Source of the DNA: a virus
Lineage: Duplodnaviria; Caudoviricetes
Virus record (IMG/VR): IMGVR_UViG_3300019093_001485
Location: 916-64,915 of that record
Strand: one strand, 5' to 3'
Length of the DNA: 64,000 bases
In this document: positions 36,416 to 50,640 of the stretch, one piece after another
How the letters are laid out: each line of letters begins with the position of its first letter
How positions within the stretch are numbered: the stretch's first letter is position 1
Position numbers and translations under genes: made by a program
The notes under the pieces: generated by a model
Database searches by the model: none
Told to the model about the DNA's origin: nothing
What the model saw: only the letters and a program-made list of their open reading frames with translations

Positions 36416-36708
36416 GGCAGCACCAGCCTGTAATGACGGCCACCAATGTGCTCCATCTTCAAGGGGGCCGGTGCAGTCCATACGCAATAACCATCGGCGT
36501 CGATCTGCTTTCCCTGTGCATACCACCAGGTGACTACACGCCAAAATGAAGCCCGCGAACCAGGCTGATTCTCTTTAATCGAACCGTTCGCATTGAGTAC
36601 TTGCGGACCAAACCGCGGATGGTCTTCGAATTTAATGATCTTGCCTGCCTCATCTCGAATTTTTCTATCAGGTCCGCCCAGGGAGATATGAAGAAATGGG
36701 AAAGTCAA
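36412..36708 (-). CDS. Hypothetical protein
   Basis: Coupled at both ends within the operon. Confidence 0.6.
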   Translation of the reverse strand: MTFPFLHISLGGPDRKIRDEAGKIIKFEDHPRFGPQVLNANGSIKENQPGSRASFWRVVTWWYAQGKQIDADGYCVWTAPAPLKMEHIGGRHYRLVLP

Positions 36709-37937
36709 AGCTCAGCCTCCGAAAACAATCTCGGTTGCACCGCGCCGTTTTGATAGACAACGTCCATCACGGTAGTGGCTAGCGGTTCATCACCATCCCA
36801 GCCATCAGGCCAAGTTTGCAAATCGATCAGTTCATGGATGCGCGCTTCTTCCTCGGCATTGATCAAGTCGACAACTGGCCGCCCTGTGCACGCTGCTCTT
36901 GCATTGATTTCTGCCTGAATTGCAAGGATGCGATCAAGTGCCATCAACCTGGCCTCAAAAGTCAGCGGCCCTTTCCTTTGCGGGTTCTTGCCGATTGATC
37001 CGTCTTTGAGGCGTTCAATGCCAGCTTTGCGCAAACGGTACTGGTCCTCACGCAACTCGCGCCAGAGAGGTTTGATGCGCTTCAACGGCGCTAAGTAAGC
37101 CCACTGTGGGTTTAAAAGAATGTTATCCAGAGCAGTATCAGTGTCGACCAGCGGGCAACCTGTGCAACCTGTTCGGGCATTTATTTCCTCAGCCTCATCA
37201 CCACCGTATGCATCAGCAATTGCCCGAGTACTCCAGTCACCGAACTCAGCTGTAGGTGCCCAATGTTTTAGCCATTCCCAGATATGACAGACGCGCCAAT
37301 GCAGCAACGGTGCCAAGGTTGCCAGGCGGCCGCGAAGGCCTTTTGCATTTGGCAATACTTCCTGGTACCAGCCTTGGCCACACTCTGCACCATCTTTGCC
37401 GCAACTCATTTCGATACGCTGATCACGAATGGCACTTTCACCCTGGCGCACGCCAGTGATCATTAGGATGCCACCCTCCAACTGATCCAAACGCGCCTCA
37501 AGTGCATGTTGCATGGGGTCGATTTTGATTTGGCGAGTACACCAGCGCAGCGTATTGTTATTTGGAGGTGGTACGCCTCTGCCAAGGATGTAAACCATAA
37601 AACGCTTGTCCATGGGTGCCATGACAATTTCTACAGCAATGCCACGATCACGCAGCTCGTCCATGATCTGGTGCGCAGATGCAGCCAAGGGAATGAGCTC
37701 CTGGCGGGTGTCTGCATAAAAGACTGTCAGTGTTTTTGGTCTGGCAATCTTGCCCGTATCAATCAGCCAGATAATCAAGGTAAGCGTGGCGCTTGAATCC
37801 TTGCCACCTGACCAGGCTATTCCCCAATGATCATGCTGCTGGCCGTAGGCCTGCATGGAGCGGATCGTCAGATCAATGGAATCTGTCATCTGCAAGCGCT
37901 TGGAGCCAGCCGCGAAAAAATCCACTTGCGCCGTCAT
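36705..37937 (-). CDS. PAPS-reductase family PP-loop enzyme, DndC-like
   Basis: WSGGKDS, ILGRGVPPP, RWCT..IKIDP, GVRQGES, RTGCTGCPLV, GPLTFEAR. Confidence 0.82.
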   Translation of the reverse strand: MTAQVDFFAAGSKRLQMTDSIDLTIRSMQAYGQQHDHWGIAWSGGKDSSATLTLIIWLIDTGKIARPKTLTVFYADTRQELIPLAASAHQIMDELRDRGIAVEIVMAPMDKRFMVYILGRGVPPPNNNTLRWCTRQIKIDPMQHALEARLDQLEGGILMITGVRQGESAIRDQRIEMSCGKDGAECGQGWYQEVLPNAKGLRGRLATLAPLLHWRVCHIWEWLKHWAPTAEFGDWSTRAIADAYGGDEAEEINARTGCTGCPLVDTDTALDNILLNPQWAYLAPLKRIKPLWRELREDQYRLRKAGIERLKDGSIGKNPQRKGPLTFEARLMALDRILAIQAEINARAACTGRPVVDLINAEEEARIHELIDLQTWPDGWDGDEPLATTVMDVVYQNGAVQPRLFSEAEL

Positions 37938-40492
37938 GCCACTGCCTCGAGTTCTTCAAAGTCGAACAGCGTCGGCATAGACATTTCTCGTTCAGCAGCC
38001 TTGCAATATGCGGCACCATCGAGGAAGTAAGCCGGGCTCAACTCAATGCCTATACCCTTGCGACCCTTCAGAATGGCGCGGTACGGGACAGTCATCAGGC
38101 CGCCAAACGGGTCCAGGACGATATCGCCCTTGTTTGACCACTGTTCAATTGCACGATCAGCGATATCAAATTGCATCGGGCAAAGATGCATTTCTTTACC
38201 CTTCGCTGACTGGGCTCCATTCAATGTGAGCATGCGCGTCACATCTGACCAGACCTCACTTGACCAGGACTGCGGCTGCAGCAGCATAAAAGTGACTGGC
38301 AACTTGCCTTGCGCATCCAGCGTTTCACCTATCTTGACGTGATGCTCAAAGTTATAGATCGCTTCCAGGCTGTTTGCCTTGAAGGTCTTGAAAATCATGT
38401 CGTGCGGCATCGACTGCAGCTCTTCAGGTGCCAGCAGGCGGTTACCAGATGACCTGGTGAAGCCATGGGCATCAATCTGCCAGCGAGACCGGCTATAGTT
38501 ATCCTTGCCCTTCACCACCGGCTCATCCGCATAACTGTTGCTTGTGTCTGTTGGCGGCTTCCTGAAAATCAGCAAGTACTCGGGTATGCCACAACTCATC
38601 TTGCTGCCGTCTTTGCACTGCTCAGACCAGCCCAGGCGATATGTTTGATTGTTTTCGCGGACCACGTCAGTGACAATGGTTTTCATACCCATATAGGCGA
38701 AACCGTGTTTTGTATAATGCTCAATACAGCGTGCATGGAATGGGTACACGGTCTGAAAGCCGAGGCCTGTCATGCCACCGGGCACAATGCGGTCTTTAAC
38801 GTGGATAGCGGCCAAGCGGCCAGGTTTGAGCACTTTTAGCAAATTGGGCGTCAAATAGTCCATTTGCTTGAAAAAATGCTCGTTATTGTCCGTGTGCCCG
38901 AAATCAGAATAGTTGGGGCTGTATTCGTACTGCGTAGAAAAAGGAATCGAAGTGACGATCAGGCCTACGCTGTTTTCTTCCATGGCAGTTGTTTCCAGCA
39001 CGCTGTCATTGTTGATGCAGCGGTAGTTGTCGCCGCACACTTCAATGCGCTTAACGCCCATTGCGCGGGTAAGCTCGTTTGCCATAGCATCCTCGGACAA
39101 ACCGTATTCATTGATCAGTTCAGACATCTTTGCCACCATTTCATTGTGTTGTTTCCATTTGCGTTCCACCTGACGCCGCACCTCGCGCTCAGCCTCCGTA
39201 TAGATCAGATCAATACGGACGGTCTTGGTCTGCAAGAATCGCTGGATACGGTGAATTGCCTGAATCAGGTCTTTGAATTTGAAACCGATTCCCAGGAAGA
39301 TCGCCCAGGAGCAGTGCCGCTGGAAATTGCAACCGCTGCCAGCGATCACCGGCTTGGCCGCCAACTCTTGAATCCTTCCGTCGGAAAAGTCGATAATCGC
39401 CGCCTCACGCTCTTCCATGTCCTGACTACCGTAAACGCTGACTGATGTTGGGATTGCTTTCTCGATCGCGTGGCGCTCTGCTTCCAGGTCATGCCACAGC
39501 AATCTATGTGCGTCCGGATCTTCGGCGCGCAGTTCCATCATTTTTGCAATGCGGGCTGGCAATGACTCCCTTTTCTCGCGGGCGGAATCGACAACGCCGA
39601 TGGCCTGATTCTTGAACATGCGCGCCTGGCCGGACATTTCATGGCCAGCAGTGGAATGGTTCGCAGGGATTTCATGCCAGCGGATATCCATCTTTGGCAG
39701 CGAATAGCCTTCATCGGAAAAGCCCAGATCAGACGGCCGCTGAACAAATAAACCCCACGATGCCAGCCAAGTCCAGAACTCGCGCTCTTTGTGGGCGTGA
39801 ATCGTCAGTTCGTCGGCCTTTTCGCTATTGCGCTTGAAGAAGCGAGTTTTGGCAGCTGAGACATCCATCACGCCCAGGAATGCTGAATAAGCAAGCAGCT
39901 CTATGTATTCATTCGGGCTGGGTGTAGCCGTGGCAACAAACCGGTACCGCACTCCGTCGCTGCGCACCCGGTTAACCATGGTTTTATAGTCGCCGGCAAA
40001 CAGACCCATGAATTCTCTGAATGTCTTGGTGCCACCAAATCCCCGCAAGCAGTCGGCTTCATCAAGGCATGCGACACTGAACAGGCGAGGATCCAGTTTG
40101 CCGTCCCGAATGGTCTCGTAATTTGTCATGTAGATGCCTTCGGGGTCCGTGGCTTCCTGGATGCGACGAATAAACTTGATCGTGATGCCCAGCATAGCTG
40201 CATCGCGCATAAATTCCTGACGCACGCCAAGCGGTGCACAGATCAAGCCCCTGCCACCAGCAAAATTGCGGATGATGCGGACGATCTCCAGTTCCATCAC
40301 AGTCTTACCCAGGCCGAAGGCTGCAAATATTGCTCGCCTGCCACCACGGACAGCCCATTTGACGATCGCTCGTTGGTGCTGTTTTAGGATGGGATTGATA
40401 TCGGAATCACATATCTCAAAGCCATATAACTCAGCTTTGACAACCTTTTGTTGCAGAAATTTTGTGTAATCGCTTAAAATATGAGCAGTCAT
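37934..40492 (-). CDS. SNF2-like helicase fused to N6/N4 DNA methyltransferase
   Basis: FGLGKT, LDEAD, TATPSPN, QAIHRIQRF; then TSIPF (motif IV) and VLDPFGGL (motif I). Confidence 0.88.
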   Translation of the reverse strand: MTAHILSDYTKFLQQKVVKAELYGFEICDSDINPILKQHQRAIVKWAVRGGRRAIFAAFGLGKTVMELEIVRIIRNFAGGRGLICAPLGVRQEFMRDAAMLGITIKFIRRIQEATDPEGIYMTNYETIRDGKLDPRLFSVACLDEADCLRGFGGTKTFREFMGLFAGDYKTMVNRVRSDGVRYRFVATATPSPNEYIELLAYSAFLGVMDVSAAKTRFFKRNSEKADELTIHAHKEREFWTWLASWGLFVQRPSDLGFSDEGYSLPKMDIRWHEIPANHSTAGHEMSGQARMFKNQAIGVVDSAREKRESLPARIAKMMELRAEDPDAHRLLWHDLEAERHAIEKAIPTSVSVYGSQDMEEREAAIIDFSDGRIQELAAKPVIAGSGCNFQRHCSWAIFLGIGFKFKDLIQAIHRIQRFLQTKTVRIDLIYTEAEREVRRQVERKWKQHNEMVAKMSELINEYGLSEDAMANELTRAMGVKRIEVCGDNYRCINNDSVLETTAMEENSVGLIVTSIPFSTQYEYSPNYSDFGHTDNNEHFFKQMDYLTPNLLKVLKPGRLAAIHVKDRIVPGGMTGLGFQTVYPFHARCIEHYTKHGFAYMGMKTIVTDVVRENNQTYRLGWSEQCKDGSKMSCGIPEYLLIFRKPPTDTSNSYADEPVVKGKDNYSRSRWQIDAHGFTRSSGNRLLAPEELQSMPHDMIFKTFKANSLEAIYNFEHHVKIGETLDAQGKLPVTFMLLQPQSWSSEVWSDVTRMLTLNGAQSAKGKEMHLCPMQFDIADRAIEQWSNKGDIVLDPFGGLMTVPYRAILKGRKGIGIELSPAYFLDGAAYCKAAEREMSMPTLFDFEELEAVA

Positions 40493-40509
40493 TTATCGGA
40501 ACCCTATTT

Positions 40510-40725
40510 TCATAATTGATCAGAAGCCCGGGCGGGTGCAACCGCTTGGGCTTTGTTTTTTGCGGGGCGCACATTGATGTATGTGGCGTACTGCACGATG
40601 TCGCGAATAGTGCTTTCGCCAACCTGATAGATTTTGGCAAGAGTGCCGTAGCCGCGCACGTATGCCAGGTATTGCGACCTGATTTCAAGTACTTGCTCAG
40701 GCGTGAGCTTCCGGCGACGAGTCAT
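40510..40725 (-). CDS. Small HTH protein
   Basis: KLTPEQVLEIR...LAKIYQVGESTIRDIV. Confidence 0.75.
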   Translation of the reverse strand: MTRRRKLTPEQVLEIRSQYLAYVRGYGTLAKIYQVGESTIRDIVQYATYINVRPAKNKAQAVAPARASDQL

Positions 40726-41252
40726 CTGCCATCTCCTTCAAACAGGCAAAGAATCGCTTCCATTGATTGTTCAGCTACCTGTGCAGAGGCATACGGCCAA
40801 AGATATTTCTGTGCATGATGTGTGCGGAAAAACTCAAGAACGCCATCGCGATAAATTTGAAAGTCACCTTCGTCGCATTTTTTGTACGAGATAGATTTCG
40901 GAACAGGGAACACTCCGCCCTTTGGACCGCTGCACCATATAACCCAGCCTGACCCTACTTTCAGCCAAAGTCTGAACGTTTCACGGTCTTTGAATCGCTC
41001 TTGGTTTTTGAATACCTCACCTTCAAGCTTCATTTGCTTGCGGTGCACTGGGCCAAAGCGAGGGATCAGCGTCTCAACAGAGAAAAACTCACCACTGCCT
41101 AGATTCCAGATGCTGTTCCAAAATCTGCGCCAAGCTTTCTGATCTTGCTCAGCTTGGCCATCGACCATTTCAAAGAGACATTCACGCAAAACCTGGCGCT
41201 GAGCTTCGGTTGGCTCAATGTCTGTACGCTTTGTTAGTACGATTTGCGTCAT
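40722..41252 (-). CDS. DUF1367/Nin-region-like protein
   Basis: HRK...FRLWLKVGSGW...PVPKSISY..CDE. Confidence 0.65.
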   Translation of the reverse strand: MTQIVLTKRTDIEPTEAQRQVLRECLFEMVDGQAEQDQKAWRRFWNSIWNLGSGEFFSVETLIPRFGPVHRKQMKLEGEVFKNQERFKDRETFRLWLKVGSGWVIWCSGPKGGVFPVPKSISYKKCDEGDFQIYRDGVLEFFRTHHAQKYLWPYASAQVAEQSMEAILCLFEGDGR

Positions 41253-41455
41253 GCAGCGCCCCGGCATAAGCTGCAATACTTGAACACAGCCTCACCTGCG
41301 GAATTGGTGAACTGTTGAATAGAACGCCATTGGCCGCTGCCATTGCGGCAGCGGCTCCCTTTACAGTATCGGCGAGCGGTTACTGTATTGAGGGGCGATG
41401 TTGATTGATTGCGGATGTGCTGAGCATCCGTTGCCGCCGGAGATTGATAGGTCAT
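41249..41455 (-). CDS. Small Cys-containing hypothetical protein
   Basis: CKGSRC...CSLC; coupled. Confidence 0.55.
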   Translation of the reverse strand: MTYQSPAATDAQHIRNQSTSPLNTVTARRYCKGSRCRNGSGQWRSIQQFTNSAGEAVFKYCSLCRGAA

Positions 41456-41558
41456 AGCTTCCCCCGGAAAAAATCACGGATTGCACGCAAGCGGCGAATG
41501 ACCAAGATGCGAGTCCAGATCATTTCCAACCGCATGCACTTAAAAAACGTTGGTGTCG

Positions 41559-41744
41559 TCATGGTTCCGCTTTCACCAAGGTATCAATCGCTTCACGCAA
41601 ATGGCGCGTAGCCAAAACCAGCCGGCTATTACATTCCTCCACTCTGGAAGTGCCACGCGCACCAATTTTTTCTTTATCTGCTTCCCGCCAATTTTTAGCC
41701 ATCACAAGCACCCTTTCTTTTTTCTGGTCGGTCTGTTCGCTCAT
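41559..41744 (-). CDS. Hypothetical protein
   Basis: AAGGA RBS, in operon. Confidence 0.55.
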   Translation of the reverse strand: MSEQTDQKKERVLVMAKNWREADKEKIGARGTSRVEECNSRLVLATRHLREAIDTLVKAEP

Positions 41745-41784
41745 TACTGTCCTTCTTGTGTCTCATCGTTGTCCGCCCTTCCCG

Positions 41785-42009
41785 TCAAAGACGCATGTTT
41801 CGGTTAGGAAACATGGCCTTGTTATGTGCCGATGAAGGTCTTTCTGTTCGTCGTCGCGATCGAATAACATTCGTGCTTCGGGCCCAGTTATTTGCCAGGT
41901 TGCGCAAAACACGGGACTGAGGAACATCCGAGGCTTTGCAACGATTTTGAAATTCCAGAAATTCATCTGCATTCAGCAGGGTTTTGACGACTATGGTTCG
42001 AGAGTTCAT
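41785..42009 (-). CDS. Small DNA-binding protein (RHH-like) at the cII position
   Basis: beta-alpha-alpha pattern TIVVKTLLNADEF...SRVLRNL; AGGA RBS; follows cro. Confidence 0.5.
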   Translation of the reverse strand: MNSRTIVVKTLLNADEFLEFQNRCKASDVPQSRVLRNLANNWARSTNVIRSRRRTERPSSAHNKAMFPNRNMRL

Positions 42010-42065
42010 GTTTTTGTCCTAGTGTTAGTGATTCAGGAATAGTGCTGCGATTCGAGGTGCCAGGG

Positions 42066-42314
42066 TTAGGAGTCACATTGGGATTCCTCCTGGAGTTCCG
42101 GCCAGAATTCGAGCCAATCATTAGGGCGCAATACTTTGAGAGATATGCCAAACCTATCGGTCACTTTTTTACAATGGCGCGCAGCAAGTGGCTTTCCACT
42201 TATATAAAGTTGATTTATATAGGCAGGAGAAACGCCGAGGAAGGAAGCTAAAGCTTTTTGACTTCCAGCCTTTGCGCTTGCCAGTTGGATTGGATTTAAG
42301 TTCTGTTCGCACAT
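42066..42314 (-). CDS. cro: Cro/YdaS-like repressor
   Basis: AGSQKALASFLGVSPAYINQL HTH and LRPNDWLEFWPEL tail; divergent from cI. Confidence 0.88.
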   Translation of the reverse strand: MCEQNLNPIQLASAKAGSQKALASFLGVSPAYINQLYISGKPLAARHCKKVTDRFGISLKVLRPNDWLEFWPELQEESQCDS

Positions 42315-42320
42315 GGCGTC

Positions 42321-42361
42321 AATATAAAGCAGTGCTTTATCAAAATCAAGCATTGATTTAT
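42321..42361. promoter_or_regulatory. OR: two 17-bp operators overlapping PR
   Basis: ATAAAGCAGTGCTTTAT (42324-42340) and ATCAAGCATTGATTTAT (42345-42361); minus-strand TTGATT, 17 bp, TATATT, 6 nt before the cro ATG. Confidence 0.88.
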
Positions 42362-42388
42362 CTGACGGCAACGAATCACAATTACTTT

Positions 42389-42877
42389 ATGAAAATCGAC
42401 CCAAATAAAGAAAATCAGGATCGCGCCGCTTTAATCAAAGAGGCTATTGCTGCTTCTGGAAAAAAGAAGTCTGCGATCGCTTTAGAGCTTGATATCAAGC
42501 CCCAGGCGATTACTGGCTGGGAAACTACTGGGCGCATCCATCGAACTATGTTGCGAAAACTGGGGCTTGTACTGGGGAAAAATCTTTGTGGAGAGGAATC
42601 TACAATTGAGGACCTGGACGAAGACACCAAGCAAGTAGTTAAACTGATGGAGATGACAGACAATGAGGGGCGTGTCCGCGCACGTATAGCCGTAACGGAC
42701 ATCCTCAATCAGTACAAATTCAACAAGCGACTTTCAGAATCGTCTGAGCCAAACATTGAGGAAGCTATTAACAGCATCAAAGACCCTCAGAAACGCGCAG
42801 TGCTTAAGGCTGCACTTGATACCATAAGTTCTATGGAGCAAGATTCTGTTGCAAAACCATTAAAGAAAGCCAGTTAA
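42389..42877 (+). CDS. CI-like repressor (XRE HTH, no S24 domain)
   Basis: KKSAIALELDIKPQAITGWETTGRI HTH; divergent from cro; helical C-terminus. Confidence 0.82.
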   Translation: MKIDPNKENQDRAALIKEAIAASGKKKSAIALELDIKPQAITGWETTGRIHRTMLRKLGLVLGKNLCGEESTIEDLDEDTKQVVKLMEMTDNEGRVRARIAVTDILNQYKFNKRLSESSEPNIEEAINSIKDPQKRAVLKAALDTISSMEQDSVAKPLKKAS

Positions 42878-42938
42878 ACAGTCATATCAGCATTAATTAT
42901 GCTAATGTGAATAGCGCGTATGCAAGAATTTTGCAACT

Positions 42939-43316
42939 ATGCATAATTCGCGCATGGACATTTCAACTAGATTAGATATGGCGATGGTTGCCGCTGGATT
43001 CCGCGATCAAAGCGATTTGGCGCGAGTCGCCGGAATCTCTCAATCCACAGCCAACAGAATTTTAAGTGGTCGGGCAAAGCAGCCCGACGCATTGAGTTTG
43101 TTCAGACTTGCGAGGGCTTGTAACGTGTCCGTTGAATGGCTTGTGTCTGGTGAGGAACCTGAAAAAATAAGTGTTTCCCTGGCTTACATCAGCAGTAAAG
43201 AGGCTGAACTACTCACCATGTACCGTCAATGTAACGACGACGGCAAAAAAGTCATCTTTGCGGCCGCGGAGACCGCTTTACAGATAGCCCCTGCGGGTGA
43301 CTCGGAAACTGAATAA
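42939..43316 (+). CDS. Second XRE-family HTH regulator
   Basis: QSDLARVAGISQSTANRILSG...LARACNVSVEWLVSG; start may be ATG 42954. Confidence 0.88.
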   Translation: MHNSRMDISTRLDMAMVAAGFRDQSDLARVAGISQSTANRILSGRAKQPDALSLFRLARACNVSVEWLVSGEEPEKISVSLAYISSKEAELLTMYRQCNDDGKKVIFAAAETALQIAPAGDSETE

Positions 43317-43485
43317 CATTCGACTTTTCCGAGAAGTCCTTTTCCAATTTCTCCATAAATCCCACTGCGAACCGGCGACCAGAACTATTTAGCCGGTTAA
43401 ACACGCACATCGCCGCTATCTGCTCTTCCGTCATCTCAACACTTTCGGTCTTTTGTAGTGCACCCAACTGTTGCTCCGAATCCAT
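43252..43485 (-). CDS. Small protein resembling the XRE C-terminal helix pair (candidate antirepressor)
   Basis: GAAGGG RBS before ATG 43485; EEQIAAMCVFNRLNSSGRRFAVGFME resembles KEAELLTMYRQCNDDGKKVIFAAAE of the neighbouring XRE. Confidence 0.55.
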   Translation of the reverse strand: MDSEQQLGALQKTESVEMTEEQIAAMCVFNRLNSSGRRFAVGFMEKLEKDFSEKSNVIQFPSHPQGLSVKRSPRPQR

Positions 43486-43746
43486 TAAGTTACCCTTCGC
43501 CTTAGTTGTTACAAACCAGCTTGCTCCGTTACAGAGGAAAAGATTATATTTCCAAAATTCCAATGTTTCATTTGAAACGCATTGTAGTATCACTTTAAAT
43601 GATTTTGCAATGTTTTTCATTTGAATAATTGAAGAAACTAATGGACATGATCCAAGGGAAATAAAGCTCTTTCGTTAAACTTCTCTTGTTGCAAATGAAA
43701 TTATATCATTGTAAAATACCTAATTTAATCATTTTAAGTGATATTC

Positions 43747-44394
43747 ATGTCCCTACCCGCGATTACCCTCGTTACGGCAGATGATCAGCATATGTTGCTT
43801 GCGCTGTATCAGTACTATGCAGAAGAGCATGGCATGACTGTGATAGAGGAATGCAAAACTCCAGAGCAAGCAATTGAGTCATATTCAAAGCATCAGCCCC
43901 AGGTCATTTTGCTTGATATTCGATTTGGTACTGATATGTCTGGCTTTGATATTGCAAGAGAGATTCTGAAAAAACATCCAAATGCGAATATCGTTTTCAT
44001 CAGTCAATATGACCAGGCATCGTATATAGGCGAAGCTTATCGCGTCGGGGCAAAGGCCTTTTTAACAAAGAATTGTGATGCAGATACTTTTAAAAAAGCC
44101 ATTCAGGCTGCTAGCAAAGGCGAAAAATTCTTTATGCCTGAACTACTGGAAAAAGCTGTTCAACTGGTGACCAATCCGGAAATGAACCCGAAGCTAGTTT
44201 TGCAAGAAAAGAATCTATTCGAAGTATTTATACTGCTTGCCGAAGGCCTGACGAACGAAGAGATTGCCGAAAAGCTTGGTGTGGATAAACGTACCGTATC
44301 ACTCAATCGACAAAAAATTCAAGACAGATTGAATATTAGTAGGCTGCAGGAATACACAAGAATGGCAATCGCCCATGGCCTGATGGAGCCTTGA
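43747..44394 (+). CDS. NarL/LuxR-family response regulator
   Basis: REC residues ADD, LLDI, FISQ, FLTK intact; LuxR HTH GLTNEEIAEKLGVDKRTV. Confidence 0.93.
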   Translation: MSLPAITLVTADDQHMLLALYQYYAEEHGMTVIEECKTPEQAIESYSKHQPQVILLDIRFGTDMSGFDIAREILKKHPNANIVFISQYDQASYIGEAYRVGAKAFLTKNCDADTFKKAIQAASKGEKFFMPELLEKAVQLVTNPEMNPKLVLQEKNLFEVFILLAEGLTNEEIAEKLGVDKRTVSLNRQKIQDRLNISRLQEYTRMAIAHGLMEP

Positions 44395-44413
44395 GGCCCA
44401 TTAAACATATTCA

Positions 44414-45871
44414 ATGATAGACCTACACAAGATAATTCCTCTTCGATGGTTTTTTCCATTGATTGCAGTGCTGCCGGTTTTTATCGTCGCCTGCCTGGCC
44501 GGCGTATTTCTTGATGTAAGTATTTCAAACCAGCTAGACAATCAGTTAGAAAATAATTTGCGCGGACTCGGTGAAAACATTTCAAATTCTTCAGAATTTG
44601 CATTGCAGACCCAAAATACATCAGAACTCAAAAAAGTAATTTGTGCAAGCTTGTATCTATCAGCTGAAATCAATGAGATTGAGATTTTAGATGACAGTTC
44701 TGTAAAGTTAGACGATTGCCGCCGGATGGTTAAAATTGAAGGTGACTCAATAGCAGTGACCCTTCCAATTCACCCACTAAACAGGGATCAAGTTAAATCT
44801 ACGAGCAAAAATATTGTCATTGGATATGTACGAATAACCGCAGCAAAATCCGTCGTCGAAAATGAAAAACGACTGATCAGGTGGGTATTATTCCTGGTTC
44901 TGACTTTTGCTGTACTACTCACACTTTTATTCTCTTATTTTTTCACAAAAAAATTAGCTTTTGCAGTAATCGAGTTATCACAGGCGTCAAAAAGTATTAC
45001 GGAAAAAAATTTCCAAATCGAATTTTCGAAAATGCTTGGTGGCGAAGTAGGTCAAATGCAAAAGTCATTTTTGGAAATGTCGAGGACTATGTCCGACTTT
45101 ACAAAACACCTGAACAATAATGTGGAAGCCAGAACCAAAGAACTTGATACCCAGAAAAATTTGCTAGAAAAAGCCTATACAGAAAACAAAAGATTAATTC
45201 ATCGCATCAACACTGCGATTGAGAATGAACGCAGATTGATTGCTCTTGATTTACACGATGTATTTAATACAGTCATCTTGCACATCTTAGGGACTGCGCG
45301 CCAGACAAAGTCAATGCTGCATAAAGTCGCCCAACAGGTAGACGTTTCAGGCGCGCAGTCGAATTTAGTAGCCATTGAACACAATGCCAATCACCTGTAC
45401 GCCTTGTCTAAAGATTTGGTTTCGAATCTAAGACCGGAAGTGCTTGACGAGTTCGGCCTGGCAGAGGCCTTGCAGGATTTAGTAACCAAACACGGGAATT
45501 CGCATGCCGATTGCCAATACTCTTTGAAACTCAATGGTCAAATTCCCCGGTTTGATTACGATTTCAATATTGCCATATTCAGGATTGTTCAAGAATCACT
45601 ATCGAATGTCGCCAAACATGCAAACGCGACCCAATGCAAGATCACTTTAACTGTTATTGATAAGATTAATCATTGTCGCATCGTATTAAGCATTATTGAC
45701 GACGGCAACGGATTTGATATGCGAAACCGTAAGCAAGGCTTTGGCCTGGACGGTATGCGTGAAAGAGCTGGAGGCATTGGCGGCACCATCGAAGTTTCGG
45801 CTGCACCAGGTGCAAGTACTAATATCTTGCTTTGCGTAGACAAATATATTCAATCTAAAACAGAAATATAG
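44414..45871 (+). CDS. Membrane sensor histidine kinase (HAMP, HisKA_3, HATPase)
   Basis: Two TMs; ERRLIALDLHD; QESLSNVAKHANA; DDGNGF; GFGLDGMRERA. Confidence 0.95.
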   Translation: MIDLHKIIPLRWFFPLIAVLPVFIVACLAGVFLDVSISNQLDNQLENNLRGLGENISNSSEFALQTQNTSELKKVICASLYLSAEINEIEILDDSSVKLDDCRRMVKIEGDSIAVTLPIHPLNRDQVKSTSKNIVIGYVRITAAKSVVENEKRLIRWVLFLVLTFAVLLTLLFSYFFTKKLAFAVIELSQASKSITEKNFQIEFSKMLGGEVGQMQKSFLEMSRTMSDFTKHLNNNVEARTKELDTQKNLLEKAYTENKRLIHRINTAIENERRLIALDLHDVFNTVILHILGTARQTKSMLHKVAQQVDVSGAQSNLVAIEHNANHLYALSKDLVSNLRPEVLDEFGLAEALQDLVTKHGNSHADCQYSLKLNGQIPRFDYDFNIAIFRIVQESLSNVAKHANATQCKITLTVIDKINHCRIVLSIIDDGNGFDMRNRKQGFGLDGMRERAGGIGGTIEVSAAPGASTNILLCVDKYIQSKTEI

Positions 45872-47626
45872 ATGAATAATATCTATAAATATATATTCGC
45901 TACCATTGCGTTGATTGGACTCGTGAATCTAATTACGCCTTACGTTCTTGCATCTGAGCGGACGCAAGAAAATAGGGTCGACAGTCTTATACGCCAGCAG
46001 TCCTACAACTTCCGATTTAGCTTTGATAAAAGCGATTCAACACTGATTGAACTAAAAAAATTGGAGCCTTTTTTTACGAAAAAGCAAAAAGATCTTGTAT
46101 ATCTTATGCATGCAGCCGTCCTGGGCTTCCAAGGGAAACATACGGAACGTACGGCACTAGTGAATGGATATCTTACGCAAGTTACCGATGCCGACATGAG
46201 AGCTAGATTTCTTGACCAACTAATAGGAGCATATTCGAACCTTGGCGAATATGAAAAAGCAATCTTATCAATGAACGAAGCCACAGCGCTACTACCAGCT
46301 TTAAGGACACGTGAGGGAATAAGCGCCACTTTACAGGGGGCAGTCAATCTACTGCGTACACTAAAAGAATATGACGAAGCTTTGGTTTATGCAAACAGGA
46401 TGTTAGAGCTCAAACCAAATCCCGATCGCCCTTCAGAGCGGTGCTTGGGCATTTTGAATACCGTTGAACTGAATTACATACGTGGTGATGTACAACATGC
46501 AAGATCACTCATTCCCGAATCAGATGCAACTTGCAAGGTTGGCGGAAATAGACTCTACGTTCAAATTTTGCAAGCAATGTCTGTGATAGACCTAATAAAT
46601 TCTGGCAATTATCAAAAGGGTATAAATCAAGGCGTCCCTTTGGCAGCAGATTTCGAAAATCTTAATCATCGTAATGAGTATAGGATGCGACTTGAAGAGG
46701 CTTTGGCAAAAGCTTTTATGTCTTCAAATGATCTAAAGTCGGCATCAAAATTCGGGTTACTAGCTTTTGATCATGCTAAAGAAGCAAAAGCAGTCGAGCA
46801 GGTTGAATCTGCAGCCGAGACCATGGCAAAAGTGCACGAGCGCCAGGGAGACAATCCAAACGCGTTAGCATTCTTAAAGATTGCGTTTGAGTATCGAAAA
46901 AAACGAACAGACGATGACCTTCTAAAAAACCTCGCTTACCAACGCGTTAAATTCAATTTGCGCGAAAAAGCGATGCAATTAAGTGCATTGGAGAATAAAA
47001 ACCAAGTATTGCGCATTGAGCAGGAACTCGAAAAGAAAAACACACAAACAATATTCTGGGTTGCAGTTTTTTCCGCGACTGTGATGATCATCCTGTTGGT
47101 AATGTTGATATTTTTCATAAAGCAAAGGAAGAAATATTTAAGGTTAGTGCAGATTGACCAACTAACAAATATTTTTGATCGGACATTTTTTATATCCCGT
47201 GCCTCCGAGAAAATTGCAGGTCGTCTAGCACCTATCTCTATTGTTCTGCTAAATCTTGACCGATTCAGGAAAATCAACGCTGCGTACGGTTTCTCCATGG
47301 GAGATCACATACTCGTTGAAGTATGTTCAAAAATTAAGACTCTATTAACAGTCGATGACCTTTTTGGAAGAATGCAGGGCGATGAATTCGCAATATGCAT
47401 GGTCGGTCCCACTGAAGAATTAGCCAGGCATTTAGCTGAGAAATGTCGCCTGGCCATTTTAGAATTGAATATAGATAAGTTGACGCCAGACCATAAACTG
47501 ACTGCTAGCATCGGTGTGGCGACAATTGATACAAAAGGACTGACAAATTTCGAAGATACCCTCAATGCAGCGCGCGACTCCCTACTTCTTTCAAAAAGTT
47601 TAGGCGGTAATTGCGTCAACGGTTAG
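45872..47626 (+). CDS. Periplasmic TPR, TM, degenerate GGDEF protein
   Basis: N-terminal signal/TM; TPR helices (AYSNLGEYEKAI, EYDEALVYA); TM; DQLT...LLNLDRFRKINAAYGFSMGD...GRMQGDEF...TASIGV. Confidence 0.9.
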   Translation: MNNIYKYIFATIALIGLVNLITPYVLASERTQENRVDSLIRQQSYNFRFSFDKSDSTLIELKKLEPFFTKKQKDLVYLMHAAVLGFQGKHTERTALVNGYLTQVTDADMRARFLDQLIGAYSNLGEYEKAILSMNEATALLPALRTREGISATLQGAVNLLRTLKEYDEALVYANRMLELKPNPDRPSERCLGILNTVELNYIRGDVQHARSLIPESDATCKVGGNRLYVQILQAMSVIDLINSGNYQKGINQGVPLAADFENLNHRNEYRMRLEEALAKAFMSSNDLKSASKFGLLAFDHAKEAKAVEQVESAAETMAKVHERQGDNPNALAFLKIAFEYRKKRTDDDLLKNLAYQRVKFNLREKAMQLSALENKNQVLRIEQELEKKNTQTIFWVAVFSATVMIILLVMLIFFIKQRKKYLRLVQIDQLTNIFDRTFFISRASEKIAGRLAPISIVLLNLDRFRKINAAYGFSMGDHILVEVCSKIKTLLTVDDLFGRMQGDEFAICMVGPTEELARHLAEKCRLAILELNIDKLTPDHKLTASIGVATIDTKGLTNFEDTLNAARDSLLLSKSLGGNCVNG

Positions 47627-48133
47627 CTGTCCGTAATATTTCATTGACACGTCTTGTCGTTGGACGGTCAATGGATCCGTTGTGAGCAGCCATAACCTCT
47701 TCCTGCTGTATCGGAGTTGCATAGTCAATCCGGAAATGTGCCCCAGAACTGCGTTCAAGTGCAAATTTTGTGAAGGTGAGAAGGATCTCTGACGGAACGC
47801 AATTCCAAAGTGTGAAAACACCGCCCCCCATTTCGAAGAGAGAGTCCTGAGTTTTTTTGGCGCCAACAGTAGGAAACTTAACTTCATGGCCCAGATCGCT
47901 CAAGACCTGTTCAATCGTTTCGTTTCCTGCATGTTTTACATAGAAACTAGTTCCGCAACTTTTTTCTAAAGCGAAGCGCATCCCAGCTTCCAACAAATCG
48001 TCCGGCATGCCGTGCCAAAGATATATTTCTCCCTGCCCTGACTCGAGTTGGGATGCATACAGTTCAGCTTGTGTGCGAACAAGGCATTTAGCAATTTAGT
48101 TTTTTGATCAATGTCAGTCGTAGAACTTCCCAT
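47616..48133 (-). CDS. Two-repeat protein of unknown function; probable frameshift near 48095
   Basis: Internal duplication GQGEIYLWHGMPDDLL..RFALEKSCG / GGGVFTLWNCVPSEIL..KFALERSSG begins upstream of the tracked ATG 48008; ATG 48133 is out of frame by one base. Confidence 0.6.
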
Positions 48134-48139
48134 ATCAAT

Positions 48140-48355
48140 CTAATAGCCGACGACTAAAGTGTCCAATGAACCGTATTCAGCGTTAGGTATGCCAACGATA
48201 TCAGCAACCACCTGTTTGTCGCCAGTGTGAATTGCAGCCTGTTCTGCAACAGTCAAACCATATTTTGTCATTGCAGCTTCTGGATTTTCATTGTGAGCTT
48301 CACGAGCAACGGCATTTTTGTCCAGCAGATTCAAATATGCTAATAAGTTAGACAT
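48140..48355 (-). CDS. SonA-like split-borosin RiPP precursor (borosin-binding domain plus short core)
   Basis: 71 aa; NPEAAMTKYGLTVAEQAAIHTGD resembles Shewanella SonA NPEAVMRAHGLTDEQINAVMTGD as recalled; aliphatic C-terminal tail; next to a TPR-GGDEF gene. Confidence 0.78.
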   Translation of the reverse strand: MSNLLAYLNLLDKNAVAREAHNENPEAAMTKYGLTVAEQAAIHTGDKQVVADIVGIPNAEYGSLDTLVVGY

Positions 48356-48566
48356 TTCGCTTTACCTTTCCAATACATACTTTGGTTAAAAAAACATAAT
48401 ATTGCACAAGCATTTTATTATGATTTCTGCTATATGACTTAGTTTTTCTTGACCTGATCAGGGCTCTTAAATTTGACACGTTCGCCTGGAGTGATTTTTG
48501 GATTCGACAGGTCCAAGATAGACGGCCTTGTTGCAACTATCAATAACAACAAGGCTGTTCTCATTC

Positions 48567-49067
48567 TTACATCCCTAGCCCTGAACCGCTGCCGCTGGGT
48601 TCAGGCTTTTGATCATTCTCGTCATGCCCGGCTTGCTGCATTCCCAATTCAATTACATCATCAAGCTCTTTTACAACTTGTTCGGCCTGCAGCTTGCTTA
48701 AGCATCTCGCCTGGAAAGTACCAGAGGCATCATAAACACCATATCCAGTTACGACGTACTTGCCATTTTTTATCGTCACATATTCAACAACTTTGTGCCC
48801 GTACCTCCCAACAAACCAGATAAAACCAATCAACTCACCTGATCTTTCCGGCTGCAGCTCCGCCACACCACCTATAAGGTCGCTGGCCCATTTAGCCGCT
48901 TGTTCTTTATCCTCAAATATTGCAACCAATCTGTATTCTTCGTTATCGTCAAGAGCCATGACCGCATATCCTACAAGCTCATTGCGATCACCTGTTGAAT
49001 AGACTTTACAAATCAAGTACTTCCCAGAGTCGTCAACATATTCCAGCGTTCTAACATCATATTCCAT
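48567..49067 (-). CDS. Acidic hypothetical protein with internal repeat
   Basis: GAGG RBS; two VGY.V...K.QA units; tail PEPSGSGSGLGM. Confidence 0.7.
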   Translation of the reverse strand: MEYDVRTLEYVDDSGKYLICKVYSTGDRNELVGYAVMALDDNEEYRLVAIFEDKEQAAKWASDLIGGVAELQPERSGELIGFIWFVGRYGHKVVEYVTIKNGKYVVTGYGVYDASGTFQARCLSKLQAEQVVKELDDVIELGMQQAGHDENDQKPEPSGSGSGLGM

Positions 49068-49306
49068 AGATTTAACCTCTCAGAAAACTTCATGTTTTCA
49101 ACAATCACCCCAAAACCCTTGGCACCAGTAGCACTTAGGCCAGTTCATCTACTTTAGCTATTTCCCTGATTTTCATTTGCGACAAATTACGCTCTGATTT
49201 TACGCCCCTTCCCTTTTTTAGCCTTCGCGATCGTGGCCTCAGCTTCGCTTTGATACGCACATGCTGCACTGCACAATCGAAAAGATAAATAAAATTCAAA
49301 ATTTAG

Positions 49307-49347
49307 ATAAAGCACTGCTTTACTTTAATAAAGCTTTGCTTTATTAT
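49307..49347 (+). promoter_or_regulatory. OL: two 17-bp operators overlapping PL
   Basis: ATAAAGCACTGCTTTAC (49307-49323) and ATAAAGCTTTGCTTTAT (49328-49344); TTTACT, 17 bp, TATTAT. Confidence 0.88.
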
Positions 49348-49383
49348 TCATACATCGCAGCAAACAATTAATCAGGAGCCGAG

Positions 49384-49599
49384 ATGATCACACAAACACC
49401 TTTCAACTTGCCAACAGGCCACTTTGCCCAACCAGCAGTTGCATCGAACGCCCTGGTCATCAACGGCCAAAACCTGATTGATGCTTTTGCTGATTGTGAC
49501 ATGGAACAGTGCGACAAGTTGGCCTCGTTGCTGGCAAGCGGTCGTCATGAGCAAGTAGGCCGAATGCTGGAAGCGATTTTCTACAAATGGGCCGAATGA
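49384..49599 (+). CDS. First PL-operon protein, hypothetical
   Basis: AGGAG RBS directly after PL. Confidence 0.7.
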   Translation: MITQTPFNLPTGHFAQPAVASNALVINGQNLIDAFADCDMEQCDKLASLLASGRHEQVGRMLEAIFYKWAE

Positions 49600-50640
49600 T
49601 TTTCTGATACCCCGAAAAGTCCTGGTGATGGCGAACAAAAGACCACCGGACAGAATAGGCAAGTACCTGGCAGCTCGGAACTAGACGGGCAACGAATTAA
49701 AGATTGGTCGCTGGCACCAAGTTTCAAGCCAGCAGGGAAATCTGGGTGCCTGAATGACCTGGCCTCTGTATCGGGTGATGCCTCTAGTCTTGAGTTGGGA
49801 CGGACAGTCGGGAAAGACCGACAAAGAATTGCAGTAGAGAAGATTGCAAGACTGGCTGAATCGTGACGTCAAGTAGCGCTGTACTGCGCGAAAACCTATG
49901 AACGAAAGATGCCATGAGCAAGCCGAGGACGGAAGGCACTGCCGTGACAGCCTGGAGAGACAGGCATCAAAACAAAACCGGCTTCACCCGCCTTGGCCAG
50001 CGGAGCTCCCGATGTACGAGGCCGGTTCTGTTTTGAGTTTGACTCGCCTGCAGTGTGTTTCTCACCCACCCTGCCGCCTTCCGTGGTCGATAAATCGGAC
50101 TGGTAACTCTCTGCCAGCGAAGTTCTAAAAGAGGGCACCACACAAAACCAGCGGCTAAACGAAGACCATGGCGCGCCTCCGATGGTCGGATACCGGAGAA
50201 AGACCGGGCCGCTGGTTCTGTGTGGTGAATACCAAAAGGACGCACCCCGAGAGGGCGCTCTGCAAAGCATCGCAGGAATCTGCTTAGCCTGTTAATCATG
50301 ATCGGGTTTTGCGGTAGCCCAGATAGAAATCTGAAGGAAGCATGATTAACCTTCGGCACCTGTCGATAAGTCCGTCGCCGCAGACGGTAATCGCGACTGC
50401 TGGGACGAGAGTAACCCAGCGCCAACAGGAAAGAGGGGGCACTGCAAAACGGTCTTCCCGAGCACACGTAGTACCGAACGACCGAGAGGGTGTGCTAACG
50501 ACGGGTGAATTCCTCTTTTTCCTGTTGGTAAATGCATGATTGGATCTGGACGGTTCGAACCCGTACCCGAAACTCCCAGAGTAGTCGAGCTGGCATAGTC
50601 GAAAAATAGTGAAGATAGCCCATTTGCCAACACCTAATTT
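49600..50640 (+). ncRNA. About 1-kb hairpin-rich non-coding tract in the early-left transcript
   Basis: No convincing ORF; repeated GACA-stem-GARAGA-stem hairpins and a T-loop-like hairpin. Confidence 0.45.

Follow-up and report, generated by a model that had tools for sequence, protein, structure and literature searches.

A SonA-type precursor gene, a TPR sensor and a two-component pair in the immunity region of a lambdoid prophage

In a lambdoid prophage, the temperate phage of a betaproteobacterium from fresh water, the interval between cI and the early-left promoter (PL) houses an accessory signalling module, conserved and about 6 kb long, that has two parts. The first is a diverged copy of a SonA-type borosin precursor and its partner, a periplasmic TPR/membrane/GGDEF protein, and the second a NarL-type regulator and a HisKA_3 kinase, set beside another XRE gene and a small gene transcribed divergently. 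What is new is that the same immunity-region cassette is found in two heteroimmune phages, having the precursor and the sensor without the methyltransferase SonM, a cyclase motif altered to QGDEF, and an added kinase and regulator. The module is real phage-borne signalling cargo, and rare. The window referred to below is the whole stretch of DNA that was analysed, 64,000 nucleotides long.

The immunity interval and its genes

The prophage context proposed from the letters alone is borne out by the backbone, which encodes NinB, DnaB, terminase, portal and tape measure on the minus strand and RecT, exonuclease, RdgC and integrase on the plus strand. The features of the immunity interval are these (E-values in brackets):

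42066..42315, minus strand: cro-like HTH gene leading the lytic operon, ATG start at 42315 (phrog_35 transcriptional repressor, 3.6e-10)
42324-42340 and 42345-42361: OR, operators 1 and 2 (0 and 2 mismatches to ATAAAGCAnTGCTTTAT), between cro and cI
42389..42877, plus strand: cI-like immunity repressor, 162 aa (weak HTH_3 only, E 0.026, under the cut-off)
42939..43316, plus strand: second XRE repressor-type gene, 125 aa (HTH_3 5.2e-10, Phage_CI_repr 3.1e-7)
43252..43620, minus strand: orf122, divergent from the regulator operon (34% identity over 121 aa in the TJN19 prophage described below)
43738..44394, plus strand: NarL/FixJ-type response regulator, receiver and GerE HTH (Response_reg 5.4e-21, GerE 9.7e-10)
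44414..45871, plus strand: HisKA_3 sensor histidine kinase (HisKA_3 2.4e-6, HATPase_c 1.8e-9)
45872..47626, plus strand: son-type sensor, 584 aa, TPR ectodomain and GGDEF domain reading QGDEF (GGDEF 1.2e-26, TPR_2 2.5e-6, TPR_1 4.8e-6)
47616..48133, minus strand: orf130, frameshifted gene just downstream of the peptide gene (a 130-aa ORF is left; 172 aa in other copies)
48140..48355, minus strand: orphan SonA-type split-borosin precursor, 71 aa, without signal peptide (matches SonA chains in PDB)
48567..49067, minus strand: orf166, leading long gene of the minus-strand unit (DUF7336 only, E 0.025, under the cut-off)
49307-49323 and 49328-49344: OL, operators 1 and 2 (1 mismatch each), over a PL-like promoter
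49384..49599, plus strand: first gene of the early-left operon, 71 aa, marking the end of the interval, with RecT and exonuclease following

The 17-bp palindrome ATAAAGCAnTGCTTTAT occurs in two pairs that bracket a low-GC block, the members of each pair lying 21 bp apart. There are 6 matches with at most 3 mismatches in the window, as against 0.29 expected, and none of 100 shuffles reaches 6. Outward-facing consensus promoter-like sites overlap the operators (minus strand 42349..42321, plus strand 49319..49347); as a class, such sites are not enriched in the window (19 found, 15.8 expected). A sequence-only reading had described two operator pairs enclosing cI, a second XRE gene, a regulator, a kinase, a TPR-GGDEF protein and a convergent peptide gene, all within a block more AT-rich than the phage backbone. 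Palindrome matches and domain searches agree with that description, and the block indeed has 41.8% GC, compared to 51.4% for the remainder of the window, with 1-kb windows from 42001 to 49000 ranging over 39.7-43.6% and both flanks at about 50-55%.

The cro-like protein also matches Pfam YdaS_toxin (3.9e-6) and HTH_3 (0.0019), both under the cut-off. Its start is most likely the ATG at 42315, judging by the layout of the region; a TTG at 42371 was rejected, since the longer frame would overrun the operators. The second XRE protein matches the phrog_4 and phrog_2328 repressors. No family match was found for orf122 in Pfam, NCBIfam or PHROG, and the proposal that it mimics an XRE tail found no support, BLASTP giving no alignment to either repressor at E<=100.

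Regulator, kinase and TPR protein are encoded in one tight operon, the sensor gene beginning one base past the kinase stop. The kinase has hydrophobic segments at residues 6-41 and 152-186, which flank an outer loop of roughly 110 aa, and the sensor has an N-terminal hydrophobic segment (4-28), the TPR ectodomain, a membrane segment (391-420) and a degenerate GGDEF domain. Convergent to this operon lie orf166, the peptide gene and orf130. The last is not an intact gene but what a frameshift has left of one of 172 aa, an extra C standing behind 48059 in the copies from all four runs; it has no match in Pfam, NCBIfam or PHROG.

A second phage with the same cassette

The search for the cassette in other prophage immunity regions, suggested by the same reading, yielded a second case. 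Undibacterium sp. TJN19 (genome G001) contains a syntenic prophage (L001) with the same cassette at the same place. Identity to the window phage is 84% for NinB, 83% for the response regulator, 74% for the kinase, 70% for the GGDEF part of the sensor and only 56% for its TPR part. The peptide is 71% identical (core about 62%, leader about 73%, by count from the alignment), and about 95 bp upstream of its gene are conserved. The first PL gene, immediately past the OL of L001, has 54% identity, the second XRE protein, which is conserved along with the cassette, 46%, and the cro-like protein 40%. Neither orf166 (by tblastn) nor the 172-aa gene has a counterpart in L001.

The repressor itself behaves otherwise. 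Over the C-terminal 84 aa it has 38% identity to a 160-aa protein at the equivalent place in L001; its N-terminal DNA-binding part is not alignable, which matches the different operator word that L001 has on both sides of its cassette, the leader that flanks OL being homologous. By these two criteria, operators and the DNA-binding end of cI, the phages are heteroimmune.

Such conservation bears on whether the cassette is passive cargo: part of a borosin operon from a host and an unrelated two-component pair, acquired through illegitimate recombination, functionless and now being lost. An insertion sequence of about 1.2 kb splits the TPR gene of L001 and the gene after the window's peptide gene is frameshifted, so the prophage can persist after losing parts of the module; the GGDEF motif is degenerate, and SonM is absent, no TP_methylase being found in the 64,915-b provirus record by a search whose control was positive in 14 of 14 genomes. 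The module is also rare: kinase relatives of at least 70% identity occur in one of 301 family genomes, one of 401 order genomes and one of 84 genus genomes, each time that of TJN19, and viral-contig scans disclosed neither a close kinase nor the module. Nevertheless, I regard passive cargo as very improbable. Each of the six core genes has a full-length open frame in the window, and gene order is kept at 34-83% protein identity in a phage of different immunity, which neutral decay would not have preserved. Kinase and regulator score above the cut-off for HisKA_3, HATPase_c, Response_reg and GerE; QGDEF and three other substitutions are common to both phage sensors and are therefore old and retained; and near-identical copies exist in three further organisms, the region being collinear in contigs from 4 runs and one 10.5-kb contig spanning 40292-49823 with 80 differences.

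The precursor-sensor pair and the host borosin operons

The likeness of the 71-aa peptide to SonA, initially an impression, holds up. Searched with phmmer against PDB, it finds 7 SonA-type sequences (E 2e-4 to 1.4e-3; next match 0.8), and a profile built from a family of 23 sequences finds SonA chains only, all 7 of them, at E 6e-13. The peptide has 40 relatives at E<=1e-3 in a representative library and is 40-49% identical to four host copies in TJN19. No signal peptide or hydrophobic segment was detected in the precursor.

These host copies belong to a chromosomal operon of the order SonA, TPR-GGDEF, SonA, SonA, SonM, SonA, SonM, whose 275-aa enzyme matches SonM at E 8.5e-84. TJN19, the one identified host of the sister phage, thus has two copies of SonM. 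A strong match to the TPR part is present in 19 of 301 family genomes, at 20 loci; SonA and SonM cluster with the sensor in every one of the 19, and SonA lies immediately upstream of it at 19 of the 20 loci. The GC content of the host operon (41.7%) is that of the phage cassette (41.8%), the genomes being at about 51%. Across host loci and the phage pair, the peptide core and the TPR domain are the most variable parts: for 18 host loci the mean pairwise identity is 31% for the core and 46% for the TPR domain, and 60% for both leader and GGDEF domain. The peptide and TPR genes are a diverged copy of the gene pair adjoining SonM in host borosin operons, and the phage has retained precursor and sensor without the methyltransferase. 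The association of SonM, SonA and GGDEF genes at Shewanella son loci, mentioned in the sequence-only reading, is confirmed in the accessible text of PMC10549244, PMC8429565 and 10.1101/2021.12.24.474128.

Compared with the 20 sensors of host operons, the phage sensor shows 30-41% identity, and the two phage sensors form one clade (SH-aLRT 100, branch length 1.32). Both have QGDEF in place of the GGEEF found in 20 of 20 host copies, and both share further changes at the ND, GH and RxxD positions, residues whose roles I take to be those assigned in work on PleD. The phage domain has lost residues that are invariant among host copies. Moreover, the sensor is joined with kinase and regulator in the phage operon, both of which host borosin operons lack. 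Hosts do have relatives of the kinase-regulator pair (27-43% identity), but no TPR-GGDEF gene comes after them.

A sensor of this kind might serve lysogenic conversion or interference directed at the host: with its cyclase dead, it would compete with or replace the host TPR-GGDEF protein for the borosin peptide, while kinase and regulator re-route a host c-di-GMP decision (for example biofilm versus motility) to the benefit of the prophage, the phage switch being neither input nor output. Temperate-phage genes at this position, equivalent to that of lambda rexAB, the classic site of lysogen-expressed cargo, are commonly host-directed. The ectodomain is intact in the phage proteins that have lost the active-site residues kept in all 20 host copies; TJN19 itself possesses an intact GGEEF sensor along with four further precursors; and viral contigs carry GGDEF genes not rarely, at 41 loci, none of them son-type. 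I still find this explanation rather unlikely, as it leaves unaccounted for a DNA-binding two-component pair in an operon peculiar to the phage version and a precursor gene of the phage's own with a conserved upstream region.

Distribution cuts both ways. Most precursor-sensor pairs, at 20 loci in 19 genomes, are chromosomal and show no linkage to repressors, which weighs against the sequence-only view of a phage-bound system, whereas the version with kinase and regulator is found only in prophage immunity regions, which weighs for it.

Output of the module and known systems

That reading saw in the module a peptide-controlled lysis-lysogeny switch, in which the phosphorylated regulator would act on cI, the second XRE gene, orf122 or PR/PL, and induction or lysogenisation would track the density of kin phage or host. 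In both heteroimmune phages the module does occupy exactly the interval from OR to OL; the second XRE gene and the small divergent gene move with the cassette and not with immunity specificity; the output domain is a DNA-binding regulator; and another induction input is needed because neither repressor has an S24 self-cleavage domain, according to domain search. The fast-diverging core and sensor recall the specificity classes of arbitrium, so far as PMC6458997 and 10.1101/2025.10.13.681337 describe them in their available portions, and VqmA/Qtip of VP882 is an earlier example of a Gram-negative phage reading a signal from its host (10.1101/2019.12.16.877910, 10.1101/2023.06.05.543668, in the parts accessible). 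Set against this, a search of OR, OL and the other intergenic regions disclosed no binding site for the regulator, and TKTTGCAAMT, the candidate word, shows no enrichment (4 matches, a number reached by 11 of 100 shuffles). The sensor gene of the TJN19 prophage is disrupted, orf122 has no detectable likeness to repressor tails, the precursor has no export signal, and the mature peptide of S. oneidensis was detected in cell pellets, not supernatants, in the available text of PMC10549244, a poor fit with a freely secreted signal. I consider the switch unlikely. Of the original proposal, then, SonA membership, the host gene pair and the position between OR and OL stand; sensing in the periplasm and a feed to the repressor circuit find no support.

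The explanation I prefer, and hold to be probable, combines a host-matured precursor, recognition of peptide by the TPR domain, and transcriptional output through kinase and regulator. The phage precursor would be matured in trans by SonM of the host, in the lysogen or the infected cell, a supply inferred from a single host (n=1), as one host of such a phage has been identified. The phage peptide, or the host's own borosin peptides, would act on the TPR ectodomain, and, with a cyclase site that is probably dead, it would pass its signal on as transcription through the co-encoded pair, coupled to the TPR protein, rather than as c-di-GMP. Phage promoters have about one chance in three of being the regulator's targets, and host genes are somewhat more likely.

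The nearest known system is the type IV split-borosin cluster of Shewanella, which in S. oneidensis MR-1 comprises SonM, SonA, the GGDEF protein SO1480 and the efflux pump SO1481 (PMC10549244, PMC8429565, 10.1101/2021.12.24.474128, as far as their available text goes). The phage element shares its SonA-family peptide and a partner of the published periplasmic TPR/membrane segment/GGDEF architecture, and the host relatives are ordinary son-cluster members with SonM. Unlike the cluster, the phage version has no methyltransferase and a degenerate cyclase motif, its precursor and sensor genes are convergent rather than tandem, and it adds a kinase-regulator pair and sits inside a prophage immunity region.

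The comparison with arbitrium (AimP/AimR/AimX of SPbeta-group Bacillus phages) survives as an analogy: a phage encodes a short peptide gene and a TPR-containing protein, and signal and sensor diverge fast (PMC6458997, PMC9232636, in their accessible parts). AimR, however, is a cytoplasmic HTH-TPR transcription factor, whereas the receptor considered here is a predicted membrane protein without HTH, its TPR part outside the membrane. AimP is secreted and then re-imported; the phage precursor has no signal peptide. Furthermore, the chemistry of the module would depend on a host methyltransferase.

Vibriophage VP882 likewise is a phage of a Gram-negative host; its VqmA-phi is a diverged version of a signal receptor of the host, so that the phage could read a host-made signal (10.1101/2019.12.16.877910, 10.1101/2023.06.05.543668, within the text available). 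VqmA-phi is a single cytoplasmic receptor and transcription factor driving an antirepressor, whereas here the receptor is in the membrane, output would pass through a two-component pair, and the phage has a precursor gene as well. No antirepressor was identified in the window phage.

The frame in which the module sits is that of lambda, where cI-rexA-rexB lie between OR and OL. In both, cro and cI diverge around a first set of operators, a further set lies at the early-left promoter, and accessory genes stand downstream of cI and ahead of PL. The window phage differs from lambda in having two operators per side, not three, a cI without S24 domain, and, as cargo, a set of signalling genes of about 6 kb that have promoter regions of their own and are transcribed in two directions.

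The immunity region and its cassette

The window is a lambdoid siphovirus provirus (IMG/VR), and the cassette of signalling genes lies in its immunity region, between cI and the early-left promoter PL. ORFs without a family name are called by their length in amino acids.

Principal features of the window
Minus strand: cro, NinB, helicase-methyltransferase, DnaB, terminase, portal and tape measure genes
42324 and 42345: operator word ATAAAGCAnTGCTTTAT, first pair (OR)
3' of cI, in order: second XRE/Phage_CI_repr gene; orf122, on the opposite strand; receiver-GerE response regulator; HisKA_3 histidine kinase; 584-aa TPR-GGDEF protein (the sensor)
Convergent to the regulator, kinase and TPR-GGDEF genes: orf166, the gene of a 71-aa peptide, and orf130
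49307 and 49328: operator word ATAAAGCAnTGCTTTAT, second pair (OL)
Plus strand, from about 49.4 kb: small first gene, RecT, exonuclease, RdgC, cytosine methylase and integrase genes

The two copies of the operator word are spaced by 21 bp within each pair. With up to three mismatches the word has six matches in the window, as compared to 0.29 expected, and none of 100 shuffles reached six. Both pairs are overlapped by outward-facing promoter-like hexamers; as a class, promoter-like sites are not enriched in the window. The likely start of cro is the ATG at 42315, which would leave a divergent control region of 73 bp before the 162-aa cI (start 42389). The arrangement is that of a lambdoid immunity region, with divergent cro and cI genes, repeated operators between them and a second set at the early-left promoter, and the ends that the sequence-only reading had assigned to the region are the operator positions themselves. 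The Peptidase_S24 domain of RecA-cleavable repressors found no match in cI or in the second XRE protein at E ≤ 0.1.

The GC content of the block is 41.8%, as against 51.4% for the remainder of the window. All the elements that the sequence-only reading described here are present, and what did not hold up is the likeness it saw between orf122 and the tails of the repressors. I have given up the term "XRE-tail mimic", since BLASTP of orf122 finds no similarity to repressor tails.

Other parts of the record and the region hold observations of their own. A 17-nt word at 43686-43702, upstream of the regulator gene, recurs with two mismatches on the opposite strand at 49169-49185, ahead of the minus-strand unit that adjoins OL; in a shorter, degenerate form it is not enriched in the window. 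The stretch of about 1 kb that follows the first PL gene (49600-50600) contains nothing but short ORFs, overlapping and on either strand, none of which makes a convincing gene. At the left end of the record, past the tail genes, are a gene for a Y-family polymerase of UmuC type with IMS domains and an HTH gene resembling Aca2/YdiL (778-2055 and 2883-3347). The replication region (36705-40492) has an 852-aa helicase/DNA-methyltransferase fusion overlapping a 410-aa gene of the PAPS-reductase family (phrog_12882, E 1.7e-232).

With the TPR protein as query, the species-representative genomes gave one close locus, L001, in Undibacterium sp. TJN19 (genome G001). It belongs to a prophage that is a mosaic relative of the window phage (NinB 84% identical, two other genes 82-89%). 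Its immunity region has the same layout with other operator words, ATTACTTTGGTTAT and ATTACTTTAGTAAT, on both sides of the cassette, and its cI aligns with that of the window over the C-terminal 84 residues only. Two heteroimmune phages therefore share the cassette, with its genes in the same order: the second XRE protein is 46% identical, orf122 34%, the regulator 83%, the kinase 74%, the TPR part of the sensor 56%, its GGDEF part 70%, the peptide 71% and the first PL gene 54%. The second XRE gene and orf122 go with the cassette and not with immunity specificity. In L001 an element of about 1.2 kb (11249-12468) interrupts the TPR gene. Its inverted ends are 27 nt long and its ORF, presumably an IS481-like transposase, encodes 374 aa; I take the element to be an insertion sequence.

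Contigs from four public runs, representing three organisms, are collinear with the region. One of them spans 40292-49823 with 80 differences and has flanks that are more diverged or different, from which it follows that the immunity region and the cassette move as a unit among mosaic phages. Against this record of conservation, it is very improbable that the cassette is passive cargo.

Beyond these cases the cassette is scarce in the collections searched. Exact-sequence look-ups gave few contigs per cassette protein, megablast of 42000-49500 found no match in phage and E. coli collections, and scans of viral contigs with the peptide, the kinase, the TPR protein, the kinase alignment and the peptide alignment found no relative. 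The TPR-GGDEF alignment did return 41 viral loci, all matching in the GGDEF part only, and beside none of the 41 was there a relative of SonA (the split-borosin precursor), of SonM (its backbone N-methyltransferase), of the TPR part, of the kinase or of the regulator. A metagenome scan with the kinase alignment gave two generic kinase cores (26-30% identity). The literature search found no borosin precursor or TPR-GGDEF partner in a phage regulatory region, with the proviso that supplementary cluster lists might include prophage-borne cases, and nothing alike in work on two-component systems of prophages or diguanylate cyclases of phages. In the text available of one study, many split-borosin clusters of Shewanella and Legionella are described as lying near phage integrases (10.1101/2024.01.09.574750).

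The peptide and the borosin operons of related hosts

Taken alone, the 71-aa peptide gives little in general searches: a sub-threshold LigA match in Pfam, and its own 93% cluster in a search for homologues. The proteins of the PDB are more informative. By phmmer its matches are the SonA chains of SonM-SonA complexes (E 2e-4 to 1.4e-3; the next match has E 0.8), with alignments spanning residues 1-55 or 1-66. It thus has what defines a SonA-type precursor, a length of about 70 aa and, over the N-terminal 55 or so residues, homology to the domain by which SonA binds SonM. HMMER, run exhaustively over 1.84 billion representatives, brought 40 relatives, nearly all of 49-119 aa (two are longer) and nearly all aligned from residue 1. 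A profile of 23 sequences, drawn from those and related relatives, matches SonA alone in the PDB (7 of 7 sequences, E 6e-13). The description of the peptide as SonA-like, made at first sight of the sequence, is borne out by the PDB matches and the family profile alike.

The enzyme does not accompany it. No match to TP_methylase (PF00590, the SonM family) occurs anywhere in the 64,915-b provirus, in a search whose control gave a match in each of 14 genomes, and G001, the one identified host of the sister prophage, has two SonM genes elsewhere. On these matches the phage carries a precursor of the SonA family and not the enzyme that goes with it. It has no signal sequence or hydrophobic segment. 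About 95 bp 5' of its gene are conserved between the two phages, though the gene upstream differs.

On the other side of the peptide gene (gene 47616-48133, minus strand), all four public runs have one C more behind 48059 than the window does. The orf130 of the window therefore represents a 172-aa gene that is frameshifted, or mis-assembled, there. In its intact form the gene would start 6 nt past the peptide stop, and its protein would have an internal two-fold repeat. It has no counterpart in L001 and no recognisable family, and an Atlas search with orf130 gave only uninformative shared feature counts, below 170, and a pLDDT of 0.43.

The same families occur together in chromosomes. In G001, on another contig (C6; locus L015, 7813-13175), the order is SonA (71 aa), TPR-GGDEF (583 aa, with the motif GGEEF), SonA, SonA, SonM, SonA, SonM, that is, four precursor genes and two enzyme genes, an enzyme matching SonM with E 8.5e-84. 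The operon has a GC content of 41.7% in surroundings of 51.3%. Since the phage cassette is skewed in like measure, low GC is a mark of this set of genes rather than of carriage by a phage. With the four SonA copies of G001 the phage peptide shares 40-49% of its residues. Among themselves these copies are 44-69% identical, and SonA1, which stands beside the host TPR-GGDEF gene, shows 44-50% identity with the rest.

Strong matches to the TPR part were found in 19 of 301 genomes of the family, at 20 loci (a twentieth genome has a weak match, 25%). In all 19 the cluster around the TPR-GGDEF gene includes SonA and SonM, and at 19 of the 20 loci the gene directly upstream is SonA. Judged by its genes, the host arrangement is the published type IV split-borosin arrangement. 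According to the text available of its description, GGDEF is the commonest accessory domain of split-borosin clusters (56%), the proteins that carry it are predicted to expose a periplasmic TPR domain, and neither bacterial borosins nor the GGDEF proteins that go with over half of the clusters have an established native role (bioRxiv 10.1101/2021.12.24.474128; PMC10549244).

Over 18 of the host loci the mean pairwise identity is 31% for the precursor core, 46% for the TPR part, 60% for the leader and 60% for the GGDEF domain. The comparison omits L054 and L057, where the pattern picked up no upstream precursor (tblastn finds one in L054). Rank correlations over these loci are 0.59 between core and TPR part and 0.36 between core and GGDEF domain, values that are descriptive only, as the pairs are not independent.

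Sensor, kinase and regulator

The phage TPR-GGDEF protein, which starts on the base after the kinase stop, has hydrophobic segments at 4-28 and 391-420, TPR matches and a GGDEF domain. It matches the SO1480 type of Shewanella in architecture, with homology along the full length, and is 30-41% identical over about 550 aa to the 20 host operon copies. The GGDEF fold is present (PF00990, E 1.2e-26, residues 427-580), and its active site is altered. The cyclase motif reads QGDEF in both phage copies, as compared to GGEEF in 20 of 20 host copies; both phage copies also have NA for ND and GF for GH, and in the window copy N replaces the first D of DxD. RxxD, an optional inhibitory site located five residues ahead of the motif, is missing from the phage copies (TVDD in the window, DEED in L001), while most host copies have R/GKxD. 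The phage copies thus depart from the active site of a GGDEF diguanylate cyclase, defined as GG[D/E]EF with the conserved positions. The substituted residues are, I assume from what is known of PleD, nucleotide- and metal-binding positions, and the phage domain appears to have lost its cyclase activity. In a tree midpoint-rooted for drawing only, the two phage copies group together with an SH-aLRT of 100. Their common branch, 1.32 in length, joins the host copies of G001 and of a second genome, G227, only at support 88. The divergence of the phage sensor is old.

Upstream, and joined to the sensor gene in one operon, a Response_reg + GerE regulator stands beside a HisKA_3 + HATPase_c kinase, the genes 19 nt apart and all four domains above the Pfam cut-offs. 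By these domains the two are ordinary NarL-class proteins. A close kinase (at least 70% identity) was found in G001 only, among 301 genomes of the family, 401 of the order and 84 of the genus; the search of the 301 family genomes gave 57 weak matches. In hosts the nearest relatives of the kinase and regulator, at 27-43% identity, have no TPR-GGDEF gene after them. One such locus (L061, on contig C33 of genome G704, 9370-12356) has a kinase and a regulator, 37% and 43% identical, split by an unknown 318-aa gene, with an SSB gene, an FlhC-like gene and a patch of uneven GC around them. It has no TPR or SonA gene and may be another mobile element.

When the k-mers of five intergenic regions were compared with those of the matching regions in L001, TKTTGCAAMT emerged as a candidate word of the regulator. 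I set it aside: its four matches in the window were reached by 11 of 100 shuffles, and its one match in L001 by 50 of 100.

The regulator might act on the phage's own switch, between whose operators its gene lies. This is unlikely; the intergenic regions of the window and L001 revealed no conserved site shared at the phage promoters. If it does so, the module would become the first peptide-based decision system known from a phage with a Gram-negative host, and it would depend on a modification enzyme of that host. A purely host-directed or interfering role, which I consider doubtful, is the other possibility for the output of the NarL-class pair; if the regulator acts on host genes, the result would be a new kind of lysogenic conversion, hijacking c-di-GMP input.

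A probable borosin-linked module and its known relatives

The reading I favour, with moderate confidence, is that of a functional borosin-linked sensory module, carried as conserved cargo of the immunity region. The phage precursor would be matured by the SonM of the host, and the peptide and the TPR ectodomain would form a cognate pair. The pairing is suggested by the phage having kept just these two elements, and by their being the parts that diverge fastest in the host loci. Complex prediction with the ectodomain (residues 30-392, 22-row alignment) and the peptide (23-row alignment) gave values of 0.02, 0.45 and 0.01, the mark being 0.32, and speaks neither for binding nor against it. If the cyclase is dead, the signal presumably leaves through the kinase and the regulator.

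More specific, and decidedly unlikely, is communication or eavesdropping in a Gram-negative host by means of a ribosomal peptide with backbone N-methylation, in which the phage would supply the precursor, a matched and cyclase-dead TPR receptor and its own kinase and regulator, the host would supply the methyltransferase, and the output would set induction or lysogenisation. Shewanellamide A is described, in the text available, as present in cell pellets and absent from supernatants (PMC10549244). Together with a peptide that has no export signal, this is evidence against a simple secreted signal. If the communication reading is true, the long-unexplained pairing of borosin precursor and TPR-GGDEF protein would be a pair of signal and receptor.

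With regard to the favoured module, the phage has performed what amounts to a natural dissection of a borosin operon: it keeps the precursor and the sensor (their genes convergent in the phage), drops the enzyme, would have killed the cyclase site and brings in an output by way of transcription. Such a dissection argues that peptide and TPR ectodomain belong together, and it offers a small, deletable system in which their pairing may be tested.

I rate the module as phage-borne signalling cargo assembled from known families. It is not an arbitrium system. AimR, the arbitrium receptor, is a cytoplasmic DNA-binding HTH-TPR protein, whereas the phage TPR protein has two hydrophobic segments, which place it in the membrane, and a GGDEF domain in place of any HTH; the arbitrium pro-peptide is secreted by means of an N-terminal signal sequence, whereas the phage precursor has none. 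With VP882, as far as the available account of that phage goes, the likeness is in logic only, the use of a captured host receptor. By family the phage sensor is one of the son-type TPR-GGDEF proteins, yet one with an active site that departs from that of the host copies.
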